DNA of 15,272 nt from a virus. The position numbers were made by a program, and so were the translations under genes. Of the stretch, positions 2,101 through 15,133 are shown in pieces. The DNA is taken from UHGV virus genome UHGV-0202386; one strand, written 5' to 3'. Under the pieces are notes generated by a model. It was given only the letters and a program-made list of their open reading frames with translations, was not told the origin of the DNA and made no database searches. How positions within the stretch are numbered: position 1 is the first letter of the stretch; every line of letters starts with the position of its first letter.

Positions 2101-2216
2101 CCCATCCACTAACACAGAGATCTAACCATGAATACTGGATATACGCCCGAACAGGGGCGGGGCTTCGTTCGTCCTGGTGAAACTAAAAAGCCATGTTATC
2201 GGGTATTTTCAGGCAT

Positions 2217-2287
2217 AAAAAAAGCGGCCCCGATAAGGAACCGCCTTTCTGAACAATTAACCTGCTGCGAAAAAAATGGATCAGTGC
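2217..2287 (-). ncRNA. Candidate small RNA of about 70 nt: extended -10 promoter to intrinsic terminator, in an ORF-free gap
   Basis: Minus-strand TGaTATAAT (plus 2294-2302) gives a predicted start near 2285-2287. Terminator hairpin at 2224-2248 (AAGGCGG..CCGCUU, about 11 bp with wobbles, 5-nt loop) is followed by U7 (plus A-run 2217-2223). No ORF of 60 aa or more on either strand here except the rejected long + frame. Confidence 0.3.
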
Positions 2288-2293
2288 AGGGGA

Positions 2294-2302
2294 ATTATAT
2301 CA
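2294..2302 (-). promoter_or_regulatory. Extended -10 promoter element TGaTATAAT (minus strand), no convincing -35
   Basis: Reverse complement of plus 2294-2302 reads TGATATAAT. Read directly. Confidence 0.35.
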
Positions 2303-2340
2303 ACCGTGTGGTGAAGCGCCACTATTGCCGGATAACAGGC

Positions 2341-2369
2341 AAAACAAAGGCGACCGCAAAAGGGTCGCC
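2341..2369 (-). terminator. Intrinsic terminator of the leftward RHH operon
   Basis: Perfect 7-bp stem GGCGACC/GGTCGCC (2349-2355 / 2363-2369) with 7-nt loop. On the minus strand it is followed by TTTGTTTTG (plus 2341-2348). Lies 66 nt downstream of the stop of ORF 2436-2609. Confidence 0.55.
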
Positions 2370-2435
2370 AGTGGGAACAAGGGAAAACAAAAGCATCACC
2401 AACAATGCCACATTTGCGGCTGGTGGGCAATGTGA

Positions 2436-2609
2436 TCAGTCAGATTTGGTTCGTTCCAAGGTTTGCAACGAGAGTTTTTTCCTGCGCTCTTTAAGGAATT
2501 TCTCAAGAGCAAACGAACAAGGTGCGAATCTTTCTGATTCATGCTCTATCTTTCTGCGCCGTCTTTTCCGTGTCGGTGATAATGTTTTGGTCAATTCTTT
2601 ATCGGTCAT
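2436..2609 (-). CDS. Hypothetical small basic protein (57 aa), second gene of the leftward operon
   Basis: ORF MTDKELTKTLSPTRKRRRRKIEHESERF..., AGGG 8 nt upstream of ATG 2609. An alternative ATG at 2624 has no RBS. A perfect 7-bp hairpin (2631-2637 / 2651-2657) separates it from the upstream gene. Supported mainly by the downstream terminator; no recognisable family. Confidence 0.35.
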   Translation of the reverse strand: MTDKELTKTLSPTRKRRRRKIEHESERFAPCSFALEKFLKERRKKLSLQTLERTKSD

Positions 2610-2666
2610 TGTGTTGCCCTGCATAGCAATGCGCCGTAATACCTTACACCACGGCGCTGGTGATGG

Positions 2667-2846
2667 TTACTCCTGCTCTTTGGCCTTGCGGCGCTGGCGG
2701 CGTTTGATCTCGCCTTGCATTGACGCAATGATGAATTGTGATGTGCTTTCGCCTGATTCTTTCACTGATTCCATGGCGTTTACTATTTCGTGTGGTACAC
2801 GAGCCTTTAGAGCTTGTGATTTTGCGTTTGTTGTACCCGTTGCCAT
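2667..2846 (-). CDS. Small ribbon-helix-helix (Arc/CopG-like) DNA-binding protein, candidate repressor of the divergent early promoter
   Basis: 59-aa ORF MATGTTNAKSQALKARVPHEIVNAMESVKESGESTSQFIIASMQGEIKRRQRRKAKEQE. By eye: beta strand (KARVP), helix, helix, basic tail. RBS AGAGGA upstream of ATG 2846. Faces a promoter overlapped by direct repeats. Confidence 0.65.
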   Translation of the reverse strand: MATGTTNAKSQALKARVPHEIVNAMESVKESGESTSQFIIASMQGEIKRRQRRKAKEQE

Positions 2847-2907
2847 TTCTATTCCTCTGTTGGATTGGTGGGGGACAGTATACACAGAAAAAGCACAAAT
2901 AAAACCC

Positions 2908-2948
2908 TTGACGTGGGCCACACCTAAAGCATATAGTGGGCCACACCT
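2908..2948 (+). promoter_or_regulatory. Rightward early promoter (-35 TTGACG 2908-2913, 18-bp spacer, -10 TATAGT 2932-2937) overlapped by two 13-bp direct-repeat operators GTGGGCCACACCT
   Basis: Repeat copies at 2913-2925 and 2936-2948 (perfect 13/13, 23-bp spacing), one over the -35/spacer and one over the -10/start. Sits in the divergent region between the RHH gene and the rightward ORF cluster. Confidence 0.5.
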
Positions 2949-2974
2949 TGAGATTGTCAAGGTGCATAAATGCA

Positions 2975-3009
2975 AAGCCCCGCAAGTGTCGTTACCACTC
3001 GCAGGGCTT
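2975..3009. other. Strong stem-loop in the 5' leader of the rightward operon; on the minus strand it reads as hairpin plus UUUGCAUUUAU
   Basis: AAGCCCCGCAAGTG (2975-2988) pairs with CACTCGCAGGGCTT (2996-3009) at 12 of 14 positions, 7-nt loop. No T-run on plus; T-rich tail on minus (plus 2961-2974). Confidence 0.5.
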
Positions 3010-3045
3010 CTAACCACCAACGATAGAAAGTGTATCGAGGTAGCT

Positions 3046-3252
3046 ATGAGAAATTATACCAGACACCCGCAAGGGCGGGACTCGTACAACCTGAATAAAT
3101 ACATCTGGCGTTTTATCGCCCTGAGCACGGCACAACCGCGCGTGATTACCATTGAGGCCACCAGCGAACAGGAAGCGCGTCAGCAATCTCCTGATGGCTG
3201 CGTGATGGTATTCGCTGCCCGTATTCGTCAGGGGGTACGCCATGTGCAATAA
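3046..3252 (+). CDS. Hypothetical protein (68 aa), first gene of the rightward early operon
   Basis: ATG 3046 preceded by GAGGT (3037-3041). Translation MRNYTRHPQGRDSYNLNKYIWRFIALSTAQPRVITIEATSEQEARQQSPDGCVMVFAARIRQGV. A vague resemblance to small Icd/Ash-like satellite proteins is my impression only. Confidence 0.6.
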   Translation: MRNYTRHPQGRDSYNLNKYIWRFIALSTAQPRVITIEATSEQEARQQSPDGCVMVFAARIRQGVRHVQ

Positions 3253-11055: not shown

Positions 11056-11350
11056 AGCCAGAATTACACCTGATGAAGTCAGGGCACATCTTCGACTTGA
11101 TGATGATTTATCCGGTGAAGGCGAACTTCTGAAAATGTATACCGATGCGGCGCTGGAAGCCTGCCAGAAGCATATCGGGAAACGTTTTGAAGACGGGCTG
11201 GAATTTACCCCGGCAATGCGTGTTGGTTGCCTGATGTACATCGCTTTCCTGTACGAGAACCGGGAAGCGGTTTCACCAGTGGAGCAGTCTGAACTGCCTA
11301 TGGCTATTTCTGCGCTCTGGTCAGTTTATCGTGATGTAGGGGTGTACTGA
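11048..11350 (+). CDS. gp6-like head-tail connector (head completion/adaptor) protein
   Basis: 100 aa. MSEARITPDEVRAHLRLDDDLSGEGELLKMYTDAALEACQKHIGKRF matches the Phage_connect_1 N-terminal pattern (..HLRID.D.D...I......AA). Start overlaps the portal stop. Confidence 0.7.
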   Translation: MSEARITPDEVRAHLRLDDDLSGEGELLKMYTDAALEACQKHIGKRFEDGLEFTPAMRVGCLMYIAFLYENREAVSPVEQSELPMAISALWSVYRDVGVY

Positions 11351-11790
11351 TGCCGTGGCAACCATTAAGGCGATGCACTGAGCCGGGCTGTAATAAGCGC
11401 GTGAAGTCCGGCAAGTGTGAAGAGCACAGGCGGGCTGTATGGCGTGCAGAGGATGCCAGACGGGGACACCGCCGCGCGCGCGGGTATTCCCGACAGTGGG
11501 ACAAATACCGCGCCCTGTACCTGAGCAAAAACCCGTTATGCGTGCGTTGTCTGGCTAAGGGGATTTATACGCCAGCTCTTGTGGTGGATCACATCATCCC
11601 CATCAATGGCGGCGGTGATGTTCTCTTCTGGCCTGAGTGGAACCACCAGGCATTGTGCCAGACGTGCCACAACCGTAAGACGACACGGGAAGATCCAGCC
11701 ACGAAAGCGAACCGTAAGGCGGGCATGTATCGCGAGCAGGAAGAACGGGCAGCACACCGTAACGACTGGATGTATGGCGATGATGACTGA
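11350..11790 (+). CDS. Phage HNH endonuclease (terminase-associated)
   Basis: Cys-rich zinc finger (CTEPGCNKRVKSGKCEEH ... CVRC ... CQTCHNRKT) with VVDHIIPINGGGD..WNHQALC HNH core. Located immediately upstream of terS/terL, as in HK97-like cos phages. ATG overlaps the upstream stop (TGATG). Confidence 0.8.
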   Translation: MPWQPLRRCTEPGCNKRVKSGKCEEHRRAVWRAEDARRGHRRARGYSRQWDKYRALYLSKNPLCVRCLAKGIYTPALVVDHIIPINGGGDVLFWPEWNHQALCQTCHNRKTTREDPATKANRKAGMYREQEERAAHRNDWMYGDDD

Positions 11791-11959
11791 ACAGGAGCAA
11801 ACCAGGCTGATACGTGGACTGATAAGGCAGCGTGACTTATGGAAGACACAGGAGACAGGGCACAAAGCCAACAGGACAGGGCGCACAAAACGCACCACAG
11901 CGAAGCGATTAACCGACCGTGACCGCGAGGCCATGGAATGTTTTCGCAATCGCTGGTGA
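11780..11959 (+). CDS. Doubtful small basic ORF (about 59 aa) overlapping the HNH stop; may instead be non-coding cos DNA
   Basis: ATG-ATG at 11780/11783, no clear RBS. Arg/Lys/Thr-rich low-complexity translation. Confidence 0.2.
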   Translation: MMTEQEQTRLIRGLIRQRDLWKTQETGHKANRTGRTKRTTAKRLTDRDREAMECFRNRW

Positions 11960-12078
11960 GGCCGTCAGAGGGGGTGGGGGTGGTTTTCAGGACGAAACCG
12001 TCCCTGCCGGACACCGACCGCCTCCTCAAATTTTTGTGCACGGGAATTTTTTTGAAAATAATTGGGCGAAAAAAGAAC
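11791..12078 (+). other. Candidate cos/packaging-recognition region between HNH and terS, containing a G-rich tract
   Basis: 288-bp gap without a convincing gene. GGGGGTGGGGGTGG at 11970-11983 followed by a CAGGACG-AAAC-CGTCCCTG hairpin. Location argument: in HK97-like phages cos lies between the HNH gene and terS. Confidence 0.3.
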
Positions 12079-12435
12079 ATGGCAAGACCACCAAAAGCCC
12101 CCGCTTACCTGGATGAAATCGCGGTCAGGCAGTGGAAGGAAAAATCGCGCCAGCTTTCCGGACGGGAAGACCTTACCCCCGCCGACTGGAGCAATCTGGA
12201 GCTGTATTGTGTTAACTACTCCATATACCGCAAAGCCGTCGAAGACCTTGCCACGCGCGGGTTCAGCATTGTTAACAGTCAGGGCAGCGAGAGCAGAAAC
12301 CCCGCCCTGAGCGCAAAGGCTGACGCTGAAAGAATAATGATCAAAATGGCTTCTTTGCTGGGTTTTGACCCGGTAAGTCGCCGCAGAAATCCACCGGAAA
12401 CAGAGGAAGAGGACGAGCTTGACCGCCTGGCATGA
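12079..12435 (+). CDS. terS: Terminase small subunit, P27 family
   Basis: MARPPKAPAYLDEIAVRQWKEK...LELYCVNYSIYRKAVEDL...GSESRNPALSAKADAERIMIKMASLLGFDPVSRRR matches the P27-family TerS pattern. The ORF-track N-terminal extension (from 11938) has no support. Confidence 0.75.
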   Translation: MARPPKAPAYLDEIAVRQWKEKSRQLSGREDLTPADWSNLELYCVNYSIYRKAVEDLATRGFSIVNSQGSESRNPALSAKADAERIMIKMASLLGFDPVSRRRNPPETEEEDELDRLA

Positions 12436-14080
12436 GTACGCAGAAGGCGTAAAAAACGGCAAAATTACGGCCTGTAAACGACTGAAACAGGCCGTTAAAC
12501 GGTATTTTTCTGACCTTGAAAACCCCCTTTACACGTTCGATCCGGAGGTCGTGGAGCGGTTTATTGCCTTTTCCAGGGTGTGTCCGCACGTAAAAGGCGC
12601 AATGCGCGGTAGCCCCATTGAGCTGGAGCCGTGGCAGCAGTTCGCCTTTGCGTGCATCCTGGGCTTTAAGGTTAAGGCCACCGGACGGCGCAAATACACC
12701 AGCGCATTCATTGAAGTGCCGCGAAAAAATGCCAAATCCACGGTCGCCGCTATCCTGGCTAACTGGTTTCTGGTTATGGAAAACGGGCAGCAGGATATTT
12801 ACACCGCCGCTGTGAGTCGTGATCAGGCGCGGATCGTGTTTGATGATGCGCGTCAGATGTGCCTTTTATCCCGACCGTTACGAAAGCGGGTAAATATTCA
12901 GGCACACAAGGTGATACACCCGAAAACCAACAGCCTGTTAAAGCCACTGGCAGCAAAAGCGGCAACCATTGAAGGTACAAACCCGAGTCTTGCCATTGTG
13001 GATGAATATCACCTGCACCCTGACAACGGGGTTTATTCCGCGCTTGAACTGGGAATGGGGGCGCGTCCGGAGGGGCTGTTATTTGCCATCACCACATCGG
13101 GGAGCAACGTTGTTTCAGCCTGTAAACAACACTATGACTATTGCTGCCAGATACTGGATGGTGAAGAGGTGAACGAATCCATGTTCGTGCTGATTTACGA
13201 GCTGGATGATGAAAGCGAGGTTGACGATCCGGCGATGTGGATAAAGGCGAATCCCAATATCGATGTTTCCGTCGATCGTGAAAAACTGGCCTCAACCATC
13301 CAGAAAGCGCGGGGTATTCCGTCGCAGTGGGTGGAAATGCTCACCAAGCGATTCAATATCTGGTGTCAGGGGGCTACGCCGTGGATGGGTAACGGTGCAT
13401 GGGCGGAGTGCGCCGGAACGTTCGCGGAGGCGGATTTATACGGTCAGGAGTGCTACGCGGGGCTGGACTTATCATCAACCAGCGATATTTCCAGCGTGTG
13501 CTATGCCTTTCCGGTCGGTAAAAAGATTATGCTGGTTTCCCGTCACTATCTGCCGGAATTTCAGCTACAGAACCCCGCCAATAAAAACCGCGCCATCTAT
13601 CGCCAGTGGGTAAAGGCGGGCTGGATACGCACAACACCGGGTGACTGCATTGATTATGACCGTATCCGTGATGACATCATGGCGGATGCAGAGAATTTCA
13701 ATATCAGGCTGGTGGGCTTCGATACATGGAACGCCACGCACCTGAGGACGCAGCTACAGGGGGCAGGATTTGAGGTGGAGCCGTTCCCGCAAACATACCT
13801 TCGTTTCAGTCCGGCGGCGAAATCGTTCGAAGTTTTTGTTAACCGGAAGGTGATTGTGCATCGTGGCGATCCGGTGCTGGCCTGGTCAATGAGTAATGTT
13901 GTGATGCAGAGTGACGCGAACGCCAATATCAAGCCGAACAAGAAAAAATCATCCAACAAGATAGACCCGAGCGTTGCGGCTCTGATGGCGTTTGGCACAT
14001 TCCAGGCAGAACATGAGGAATTTGCATTTGATATAAGCGACAGCCACAAAGAGCGGCTTGCGGCGTTTGATGGGGTATGA
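12419..14080 (+). CDS. terL: Terminase large subunit (Terminase_1-like ATPase/nuclease); apparent TTG start overlapping terS by 17 nt
   Basis: 553 aa. Size, position after terS and a conserved-looking N-terminal region (PWQQFAFACILGFKV..., DIYTAAVSRDQARIVFDDAR). No in-frame ATG until codon 62; GAGGA at 12408-12412 precedes TTG 12419. Confidence 0.85.
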   Translation: MTAWHEYAEGVKNGKITACKRLKQAVKRYFSDLENPLYTFDPEVVERFIAFSRVCPHVKGAMRGSPIELEPWQQFAFACILGFKVKATGRRKYTSAFIEVPRKNAKSTVAAILANWFLVMENGQQDIYTAAVSRDQARIVFDDARQMCLLSRPLRKRVNIQAHKVIHPKTNSLLKPLAAKAATIEGTNPSLAIVDEYHLHPDNGVYSALELGMGARPEGLLFAITTSGSNVVSACKQHYDYCCQILDGEEVNESMFVLIYELDDESEVDDPAMWIKANPNIDVSVDREKLASTIQKARGIPSQWVEMLTKRFNIWCQGATPWMGNGAWAECAGTFAEADLYGQECYAGLDLSSTSDISSVCYAFPVGKKIMLVSRHYLPEFQLQNPANKNRAIYRQWVKAGWIRTTPGDCIDYDRIRDDIMADAENFNIRLVGFDTWNATHLRTQLQGAGFEVEPFPQTYLRFSPAAKSFEVFVNRKVIVHRGDPVLAWSMSNVVMQSDANANIKPNKKKSSNKIDPSVAALMAFGTFQAEHEEFAFDISDSHKERLAAFDGV

Positions 14081-14799: not shown

Positions 14800-15000
14800 G
14801 AAAAATTGCATTCAGGAGGTGGGATCGAAATCCCTACAACCCATTGCTTATGGGACTGCCCGCCCCGTCAAATTTTTACACCCGCGAAAAATACTTCAAG
14901 CTGGTGGGCATGATGCCGATATGGGGATCCCCATGTCGACATTAACGCCCCTCATGAATTGGCGTGCTTCCCCCTGGAAAGATGACCCGCCTGTATATTT

Positions 15001-15066
15001 CTTGTGTCTATTTGTTCCACGTTGTTTCATACAGTGCACCGAACGGTGTAGTTACTGGTGTAGTCA
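15001..15066 (+). repeat. Right-arm copy of the terminal repeat: 3 phased TTGT motifs, TTGTTCCACGTTGT, and tandem GGTGTAGTTA/GGTGTAGTCA
   Basis: TTGT at 15002, 15012, 15022. TTGTTCCACGTTGT 15013-15026 is identical to 214-227. GGTGTAGTTACTGGTGTAGTCAT 15045-15067 versus left GGTGTAGTCACTGGTGTAGTCAT 246-268. Confidence 0.6.
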
Positions 15067-15133
15067 TTTTGCGATTTTTAAAGTTATCTAAGATATTATT
15101 TGTCATTTAAATTCAATTGGTTATGAGTACTTG

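Follow-up and report, generated by a model that had tools for sequence, protein, structure and literature searches.

The Burkholderia phages phi644-2, phiE125 and phi1026b carry the described packaging site that comes closest to the locus studied here: their cos lies between a gene for an HNH protein and terS, which encodes a small terminase subunit (TerS) of the P27 family. The ends of phi644-2 have been published as 10-base 3' extensions, with 5'-CGCCCGCTTC-3' at the right end, and phiE125 has the same cos. Phage HK97 shows the same order of HNH gene, cos and terS, with terS starting about 50 nt after the cut. Its cos cleavage is stimulated by the HNH protein gp74, and its minimal TerS site spans positions +15..+29 from the cut, where a G is followed by an A/T-tract. 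The cos of phage lambda (cosQ-cosN-cosB) has a 12-nt 5' overhang, requires no HNH protein and depends on IHF, and it has R sites and a TerS named gpNu1.

Satellites have solved the same problem in different ways. P4, phage-inducible chromosomal islands of Staphylococcus of the SaPIbov5 type (SaPIs) and E. coli PICIs with Rpp need a cos for packaging into small capsids, as does the satellite analysed here, and they either carry a copy of the helper cos or retarget the helper TerS. Capsid-forming PICIs (cf-PICIs), by contrast, are recently described and widespread satellites that build capsids of their own and package nothing but themselves. They are recognized as islands of 10-18 kb that combine an integrase and a replication module with a full set of capsid and packaging genes, HNH, terS and terL among them, but lack genes for tails and lysis. 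Their DNA is packaged by their own terminase together with the HNH protein and has been reported to form concatemers through cohesive ends, and for EcCIEDL933 induction and transfer were found to be helper-dependent, using helper tails. In the cf-PICI literature that we searched, the cos site is mentioned but not mapped. A cos site in one of these islands is a feature of a known kind and will not surprise specialists because it is expected exactly where we place it, but mapping it to within a few bases appears to be new for these satellites.

An integrated cf-PICI of E. coli

The window, by which we mean the whole stretch of 15.3 kb that was analysed, is an integrated cf-PICI of E. coli. A copy with 99.7% identity is located between allE and allC of strain AST240, and similar DNA is carried by 515 of 5,426 complete E. 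coli genomes; islands of O157:H7 strains in this genome search are ~85% identical to the HNH-terS stretch of the window. Pfam and PGAP identify an integrase gene (304-1533) as well as genes for a primase, an HK97-type major capsid protein, a prohead protease, a portal and a head-tail connector, and neither source places any tail or lysis gene in the window. Two imperfect direct repeats of 76 nt (196-271 and 14995-15070; 78% identical and 14,799 nt apart) share the identical core GGTGTAGT.ACTGGTGTAGTCATTTT and are probably attL and attR, which would give an island of ~14.8 kb. Both in gene content and in the spacing of these att repeats, the element agrees with the definition of cf-PICIs given above. 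As a separate observation, the AT skew switches strongly, to -0.46, at 2400-2900 inside an ORF of 374 aa (2128-3252), and the region matching this part in the near-identical genome is annotated by PGAP as a truncated pseudogene together with a minus-strand YlcI/YnfO gene.

The packaging genes all lie on the plus strand. The HNH endonuclease gene (11350-11790; Pfam PF01844, E = 9e-10; phrog_144, E = 7e-45; also annotated by PGAP in the 99.7% identical genome) encodes the accessory nuclease of HNH-dependent cos packaging. It is followed by terS of the P27/Terminase_4 family (12079-12435; PF05119, E = 1.6e-23, and PGAP) and by terL for the large terminase with its ATPase and nuclease domains (12419-14080; PF03354 and PF20441). 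TerS is 34-35% identical to its counterparts in phi644-2 and Salmonella phage ST64B (34% for phi644-2). The start codon of terS is at 12079, one base before the position given in the original prediction. In this lineage only, the terS frame is open for 47 codons upstream of this ATG (11938-12435) and thus runs across the putative cos site. We rejected a start at 11938 (165-aa ORF), given that an in-frame TAA precedes the ATG by two codons in most of the other lineages, that 1-nt indels occur and that the Pfam domain begins at residue 17 of the 118-aa form.

A conserved small gene narrows the non-coding gap

The first part of the interval between the HNH gene and terS is occupied by an ORF that had initially been described as a doubtful 59-aa reading frame. 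It turned out to be a real, conserved gene covering the first 170 nt of the interval (11783-11959 on the plus strand, 58 aa, or 61 aa from the PGAP start at 11774), with ATG codons at 11774, 11780 and 11783 and a stop codon at 11957-11959. Its product matches phrog_3173 over the full length (E = 6e-27) and is listed in RefSeq as hypothetical protein WP_001251186. The frame is open in all lineages examined, in which it differs by an in-frame indel of 21 nt, and a median dN/dS of 0.2-0.57 among 122 unique alleles indicates purifying selection. The encoded protein is basic with a conserved C-terminal motif, RDRExxECFRNR(W), and its AlphaFold2 model shows two helices and a disordered basic linker (pLDDT 77, pTM 0.35). 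With this ORF counted as a gene, no more than 119 nt of non-coding DNA are left (11960-12078).

The start of the small gene, ATGACTGA, overlaps the stop codon of the HNH gene, to which it is translationally coupled, and its coding sequence ends 10 nt before a G-tract that is described below. It is present in every cf-PICI lineage that we have seen, whereas the corresponding spacers of phi644-2 and ST64B have no room for it. The HK97 record contains an unannotated ORF of 67 aa (39394-39597) between the HNH gene and cos, whose ATG overlaps the stop codon of gp74 (TAATG). Its position equals that of the cf-PICI small gene, but by eye the two proteins are unlike each other.

Three conserved blocks in the spacer

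We collected relatives through their TerS protein, so that the spacer itself had no part in their selection, and condensed them into 37 lineages with less than 95% identity to one another. Across these lineages, positions 11960-12078 resolve into three conserved blocks separated by variable DNA. Block A (11970-11993; conservation 0.92) is composed of the G-tract GGGGGTGGGGGTGG at 11970-11983 followed by TTTTCAGGAC. After a variable stretch (11994-12010; 0.70), Block B (12011-12035; 0.93) reads ACACCGACCGCCTCCTCAAATTTTT and combines a C-rich part with the motif CTCAAATTTTT; it is the putative cosN-like cleavage region, divided by the predicted cut into ACACCGACCGCCTC/CTCAAATTTTT (here and below, a slash marks the cut). 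Block C (12045-12063; AATTTTTTTGAAAATAATT), a run of seven T followed by GAAAATAA, is the most conserved non-coding block of all (0.96). For comparison, conservation is 0.62 for the small ORF (11783-11959) and 0.91 for the beginning of the terS coding sequence (12079-12228), which means that all three blocks are conserved as much as this coding sequence or more.

The G-tract, a hairpin and an AT-rich tract before terS, which had been pointed out in this interval from the DNA letters alone, are all present at the positions given for them. By composition, the G-tract is unremarkable, given that a relaxed version of its pattern has 7 matches in the window versus 3.7 expected. It nevertheless proved to be a conserved element in a way that goes beyond composition, but it is found ~42-55 bp upstream of the cut and not at the cut. 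The AT-rich tract extends from ~12028 to 12078 and contains Block C. Together with its approach, this block (12036-12063; GTGCACGGGAATTTTTTTGAAAATAATT, with the seven T at 12047-12053) occupies +12..+39 from the cut on the side that would be packaged first and is our leading candidate for the site bound by TerS, by analogy to the defined sites discussed below.

Homology to the cos of phi644-2 predicts the cut

For comparison, we took phages in which an HNH gene adjoins terS and examined their genome junctions, using an nhmmer profile built from 105 unique cf-PICI spacers with the search space set to 0.3 Mb. The profile matched the cos junction of phi644-2 (E = 7.3e-5) and the corresponding place in ST64B (E = 1.1e-3). 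In the former match, Block B is aligned to the junction CCGCCCGCTTC/GTCAAATTTT, with the phi644-2 bases CGCCCGCTTC/G placed over the cf-PICI columns cgcccgcccc/c, and CGCCCGCTTC indeed forms the last ten bases of the phi644-2 GenBank record. This alignment predicts that the first base after the cut (+1) is 12025 and that the overhang comprises 12015-12024, a prediction that was recorded before the whole of the contig described in the next section had been fetched.

The likeness to phi644-2 extends along the site: the cut regions can be aligned as CCGCCCGCTTC/GTCAAATTTTCACGC versus CCGACCGCCTC/CTCAAATTTTTGTGC in our element, the overhangs are of equal length (10 nt) if the gap in the contig is read as an overhang, the G-tract is found at -57..-44 as compared to -55..-42 here, and a block with an A/T-tract follows downstream of the cut in both. 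The differences are that several bases of the overhang are not the same, that the downstream block reads GAAAAATGAAATTTAA in phi644-2 but ATTTTTTTGAAAATAA here, and that phi644-2, a phage and not a tail-less satellite, has no small gene between HNH gene and cos.

The analogy to HK97 from which the site had originally been predicted held for the architecture but not for the sequence. Against the circularised HK97 genome, the profile of 105 unique spacers gave no match at cos (best E anywhere, 1.3); a pairwise local alignment with the HK97 cos was marginal, its score being equalled in 4 of 1000 shuffles and surpassed elsewhere in the window. HK97 gp1 has no match to Pfam PF05119 and no BLASTP similarity to the TerS of this island. 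We therefore rejected sequence homology to the HK97 cos, so that homology to an experimentally defined cos was found for phi644-2 and not for HK97 itself, and retained HK97 as an architectural analogy only. As such, it is close: the HK97 overhang is a 10-nt 3' extension that is C-rich and ends in AAA like the one predicted here, a G-run occupies -56..-43 (-55..-42 here), the distance of about 50 nt from the cut to terS is shared, and GATTTTTTT at +22..+30 inside the mapped TerS site has a counterpart, displaced by no more than 1 nt, in the G/A-T7 at +21..+29 of our element. The likeness of the putative TerS sites is a matter of analogy, given that no relationship between the two TerS proteins could be detected.

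Physical ends of related elements fall at or around the predicted cut

Further evidence came from the metagenomic contig IMGVR_UViG_3300022664_000095, a cf-PICI of 15,518 nt that was first noticed because it ends 21 nt after Block A. Its genes are ordered as terS, terL, int, replication genes, capsid, protease, portal, connector, HNH and small ORF, which is the order of an excised island that has been cut at cos. The contig starts with CTCAAATTTTTACGCACGGTGATTTTTTTGAAAATAAAAC at the CTCAAATTTTT motif, a position equivalent to 12025 and thus exactly the predicted +1, and it ends with ...CAGGACAAAACCCAAGCCGCAAGGCAC (...GGCAC), equivalent to 12014 and 10 nt before the predicted cut in the top strand. 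The intervening 10 nt are absent from this contig, whereas among 105 other unique spacers in the alignment, 104 carry them and one lineage has 9. In end repair, a 3' overhang is removed, while the filling-in of a 5' overhang would have left its bases duplicated. Judging from this standard behaviour and from the precedent of phi644-2 and HK97, the gap of 10 nt would represent a 3' overhang that was lost in end repair. Fixed unit-length termini at the site, with both ends in the spacer, were thus seen in this relative and not in the island of the window; the exact ends come from this one contig, and 3 of the 10 bases of the overhang are different in the window. Our island presumably cuts at the bases equivalent to the ends of its relative, in which case 12015-12024 on the plus strand would form a 10-nt 3' cohesive end, 5'-CGACCGCCTC-3', as predicted both by the contig ends and by the columns to which the phi644-2 overhang aligns.

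Independently, a second physical break around this position is found in vB_KppS-Ant (LR881103.1), whose DNA was taken from particles and sequenced from a Nextera XT library, and which matches a region of K. pneumoniae DSM 30104 at >99% identity. Its paper presents it as a filamentous ssDNA prophage, but it is a cf-PICI of Klebsiella that carries genes for capsid and portal as well as HNH, terS and terL. The record ends with ...GGTTTTCAGGAC and starts with ACGAAAAGG, and comparison to integrated relatives shows that 31 nt are missing on the left of the same cut and 38 nt on its right, consistent with terminal bases being lost from tagmentation libraries. We also noted that a gene of 766 aa directly after terL of vB_KppS-Ant is annotated as encoding a tape measure protein.

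Additional searches for such ends added little. Another contig in the excised form (L445) extends to 12 nt beyond the cut, has its start within terS and is therefore uninformative. In a pattern scan of metagenomes, 79 contigs matched but none of them starts at the cut, and a scan of IMG/VR with the Block A pattern gave only the entry L152. A contig of 15.5 kb from E. fergusonii is a permutation in the integrated order. Two odd occurrences of cf-PICI packaging genes were encountered along the way. The first is an unannotated fragment (90644-90967) of Klebsiella phage P12620-1 (PQ569648.1, 106 kb) that corresponds to residues 1-108 of a cf-PICI-type TerS with 82% identity but has no cos spacer upstream, and that may have been left behind by recombination or result from a chimeric assembly. 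The second is a 21-kb contig (IMGVR_UViG_3300016725_000266) with two copies of the cf-PICI HNH gene ~4 kb apart, which could be tandem elements or a misassembly.

The spacer as a probable HNH-dependent cos site

Taken together, the homology to the cos of phi644-2 and phiE125, the linear contig with its ends 10 nt apart and the particle-derived record that breaks around the same place support the proposal that the packaging site lies between the HNH gene and terS. The HNH gene on one side and terS and terL on the other provide the genomic context of the HNH-dependent cos class, and we regard it as very probable that the spacer of 119 bp at 11960-12078 is the cos site of this cf-PICI, of the HK97/phiE125 type and HNH-dependent.

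Packaging could then proceed as follows. After excision and replication of the island, its TerS would bind to the A/T-tract block just downstream of the cut (~12036-12063) and recruit TerL, and TerL together with the HNH protein would nick the top strand between 12024 and 12025 and the bottom strand between 12014 and 12015. These staggered nicks would generate the 10-nt 3' cohesive end. DNA would be packaged from the terS-proximal end via terL, att and int and round to the HNH gene and the small gene until the next cos is reached, and consequently the G-tract block (11970-11993) would be part of the last ~55 bp that enter the capsid. In this scheme, we infer the direction of packaging as well as which protein binds which block. 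Like that of lambda, such a site would be tripartite in its logic, with one element upstream of the nick site on the last-packaged side, the nick site itself and, on the first-packaged side beside the terminase genes, a region to which TerS binds, but there is no sequence similarity, and gpNu1 and its R sites are unrelated to their counterparts in our element. Compared to P4, SaPIbov5-type SaPIs or the E. coli PICIs with Rpp, which exploit the cos or TerS of their helper, this island combines its own cos with its own TerS, TerL and HNH protein, which fits the reported mutual exclusivity of satellite and helper packaging.

A rival reading would also place cos in this spacer but take the hairpin at 11988-12006 as the centre of cleavage or recognition, perhaps as an extruded or protein-bound stem-loop adjoining the G-tract. 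The hairpin does exist in the sequence, with CAGGACG (11988-11994), a loop AAAC and CGTCCCTG (11999-12006) forming 5 bp (GGACG/CGTCC) and another 2 bp across a bulge. Short palindromes between G-tract and cut are also found in phi644-2 and ST64B, and the record of vB_KppS-Ant ends inside the hairpin, at ...CAGGAC. However, this last point is explained by the loss of terminal bases in a tagmentation library, which is matched by the loss of 38 nt at the other end, and the exact contig ends are at 12014 and 12025 and not in the hairpin. Furthermore, the structure is no more stable than those of shuffled sequences (minimum free energy -7.2 kcal/mol, z = -1.35), its 3' arm falls into the variable stretch that is the least conserved part of the spacer, and in close relatives the stem is broken by G11994A without any compensating change. 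We therefore rejected the hairpin as a conserved structure: it is present as described, but it is a lineage-specific feature within the range of chance, and the cut is found 8-18 nt downstream of it. A role as the centre of the site is accordingly very improbable.

We consider it still more improbable that the conserved blocks are expression signals of terS (a promoter, translational coupling or mRNA structure) and that the island is packaged from a site elsewhere. Their position directly upstream of terS would suit this reading, and the G-tract and C-tract can pair into a strong RNA fold (-35 kcal/mol, z = -4), yet the complementarity of these two tracts does not exceed that of composition-matched shuffles in 4 of 5 systems. 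An imperfect inverted repeat of 18 nt in this lineage (11930-11947 and 12066-12083; 78% complementary) could similarly pair the 3' end of the small ORF with the ribosome-binding site region and start codon of terS, but it may be due to chance because no counterpart is seen by eye in the aligned other lineages. No promoter-like site was found on the plus strand of the spacer, terminator-like sites are at chance level, and there is no Rfam match; above all, expression signals would leave both the homology to a defined cos and the contig ends unexplained. Finally, headful packaging from a pac site in the spacer, with ends that are not fixed, hardly merits consideration, even though pac sites adjoining terS are common in phages and SaPIs, in view of the HNH gene next to terS/terL that marks the HNH-dependent cos class, the reported concatemers of cf-PICI DNA through cohesive ends and the unit length of the linear contig with its ends 10 nt apart.

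The G-tract keeps its distance to the cut

With an HNH-dependent cos as the preferred reading, the position of the G-tract can be compared between systems. The G-richest 14-mer is located at -55..-42 in our element, -57..-44 in phi644-2, -56..-43 in HK97 and -56..-43 in ST64B, where the ends of phi644-2 and HK97 are experimentally defined and the cut of ST64B is predicted. These matching distances indicate that the G-tract is a positionally conserved part of this class of cos sites on the last-packaged side, and it may be a general element of HK97-type cos sites. We hypothesize that it serves as a cosQ-like signal for termination or pausing, which the translocating motor would encounter about five helical turns before the nick site. 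The idea that it is an inverted copy of the overhang, forming a dyad or cruciform, was rejected since in 4 of 5 systems more than half of the shuffled sequences equalled the best complementarity over 12 nt; the two arms are almost invariant among the cf-PICI lineages and hence leave hardly any covariation to examine.

A more far-reaching and rather doubtful reading takes the two conserved features upstream of the cut together, with the G-tract at ~-56..-43 as an undescribed functional element of HNH-dependent cos sites and the phrog_3173 protein as a satellite-specific cos accessory factor that would help to keep the packaging of satellite and helper mutually exclusive.

The cut at base level, the cohesive end and the likely TerS site define a minimal packaging signal of ~100 bp that can be tested. 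Such a mapped cos would allow the design of cosmids or delivery particles based on cf-PICIs and would make it possible to test directly what renders satellite and helper packaging mutually exclusive.
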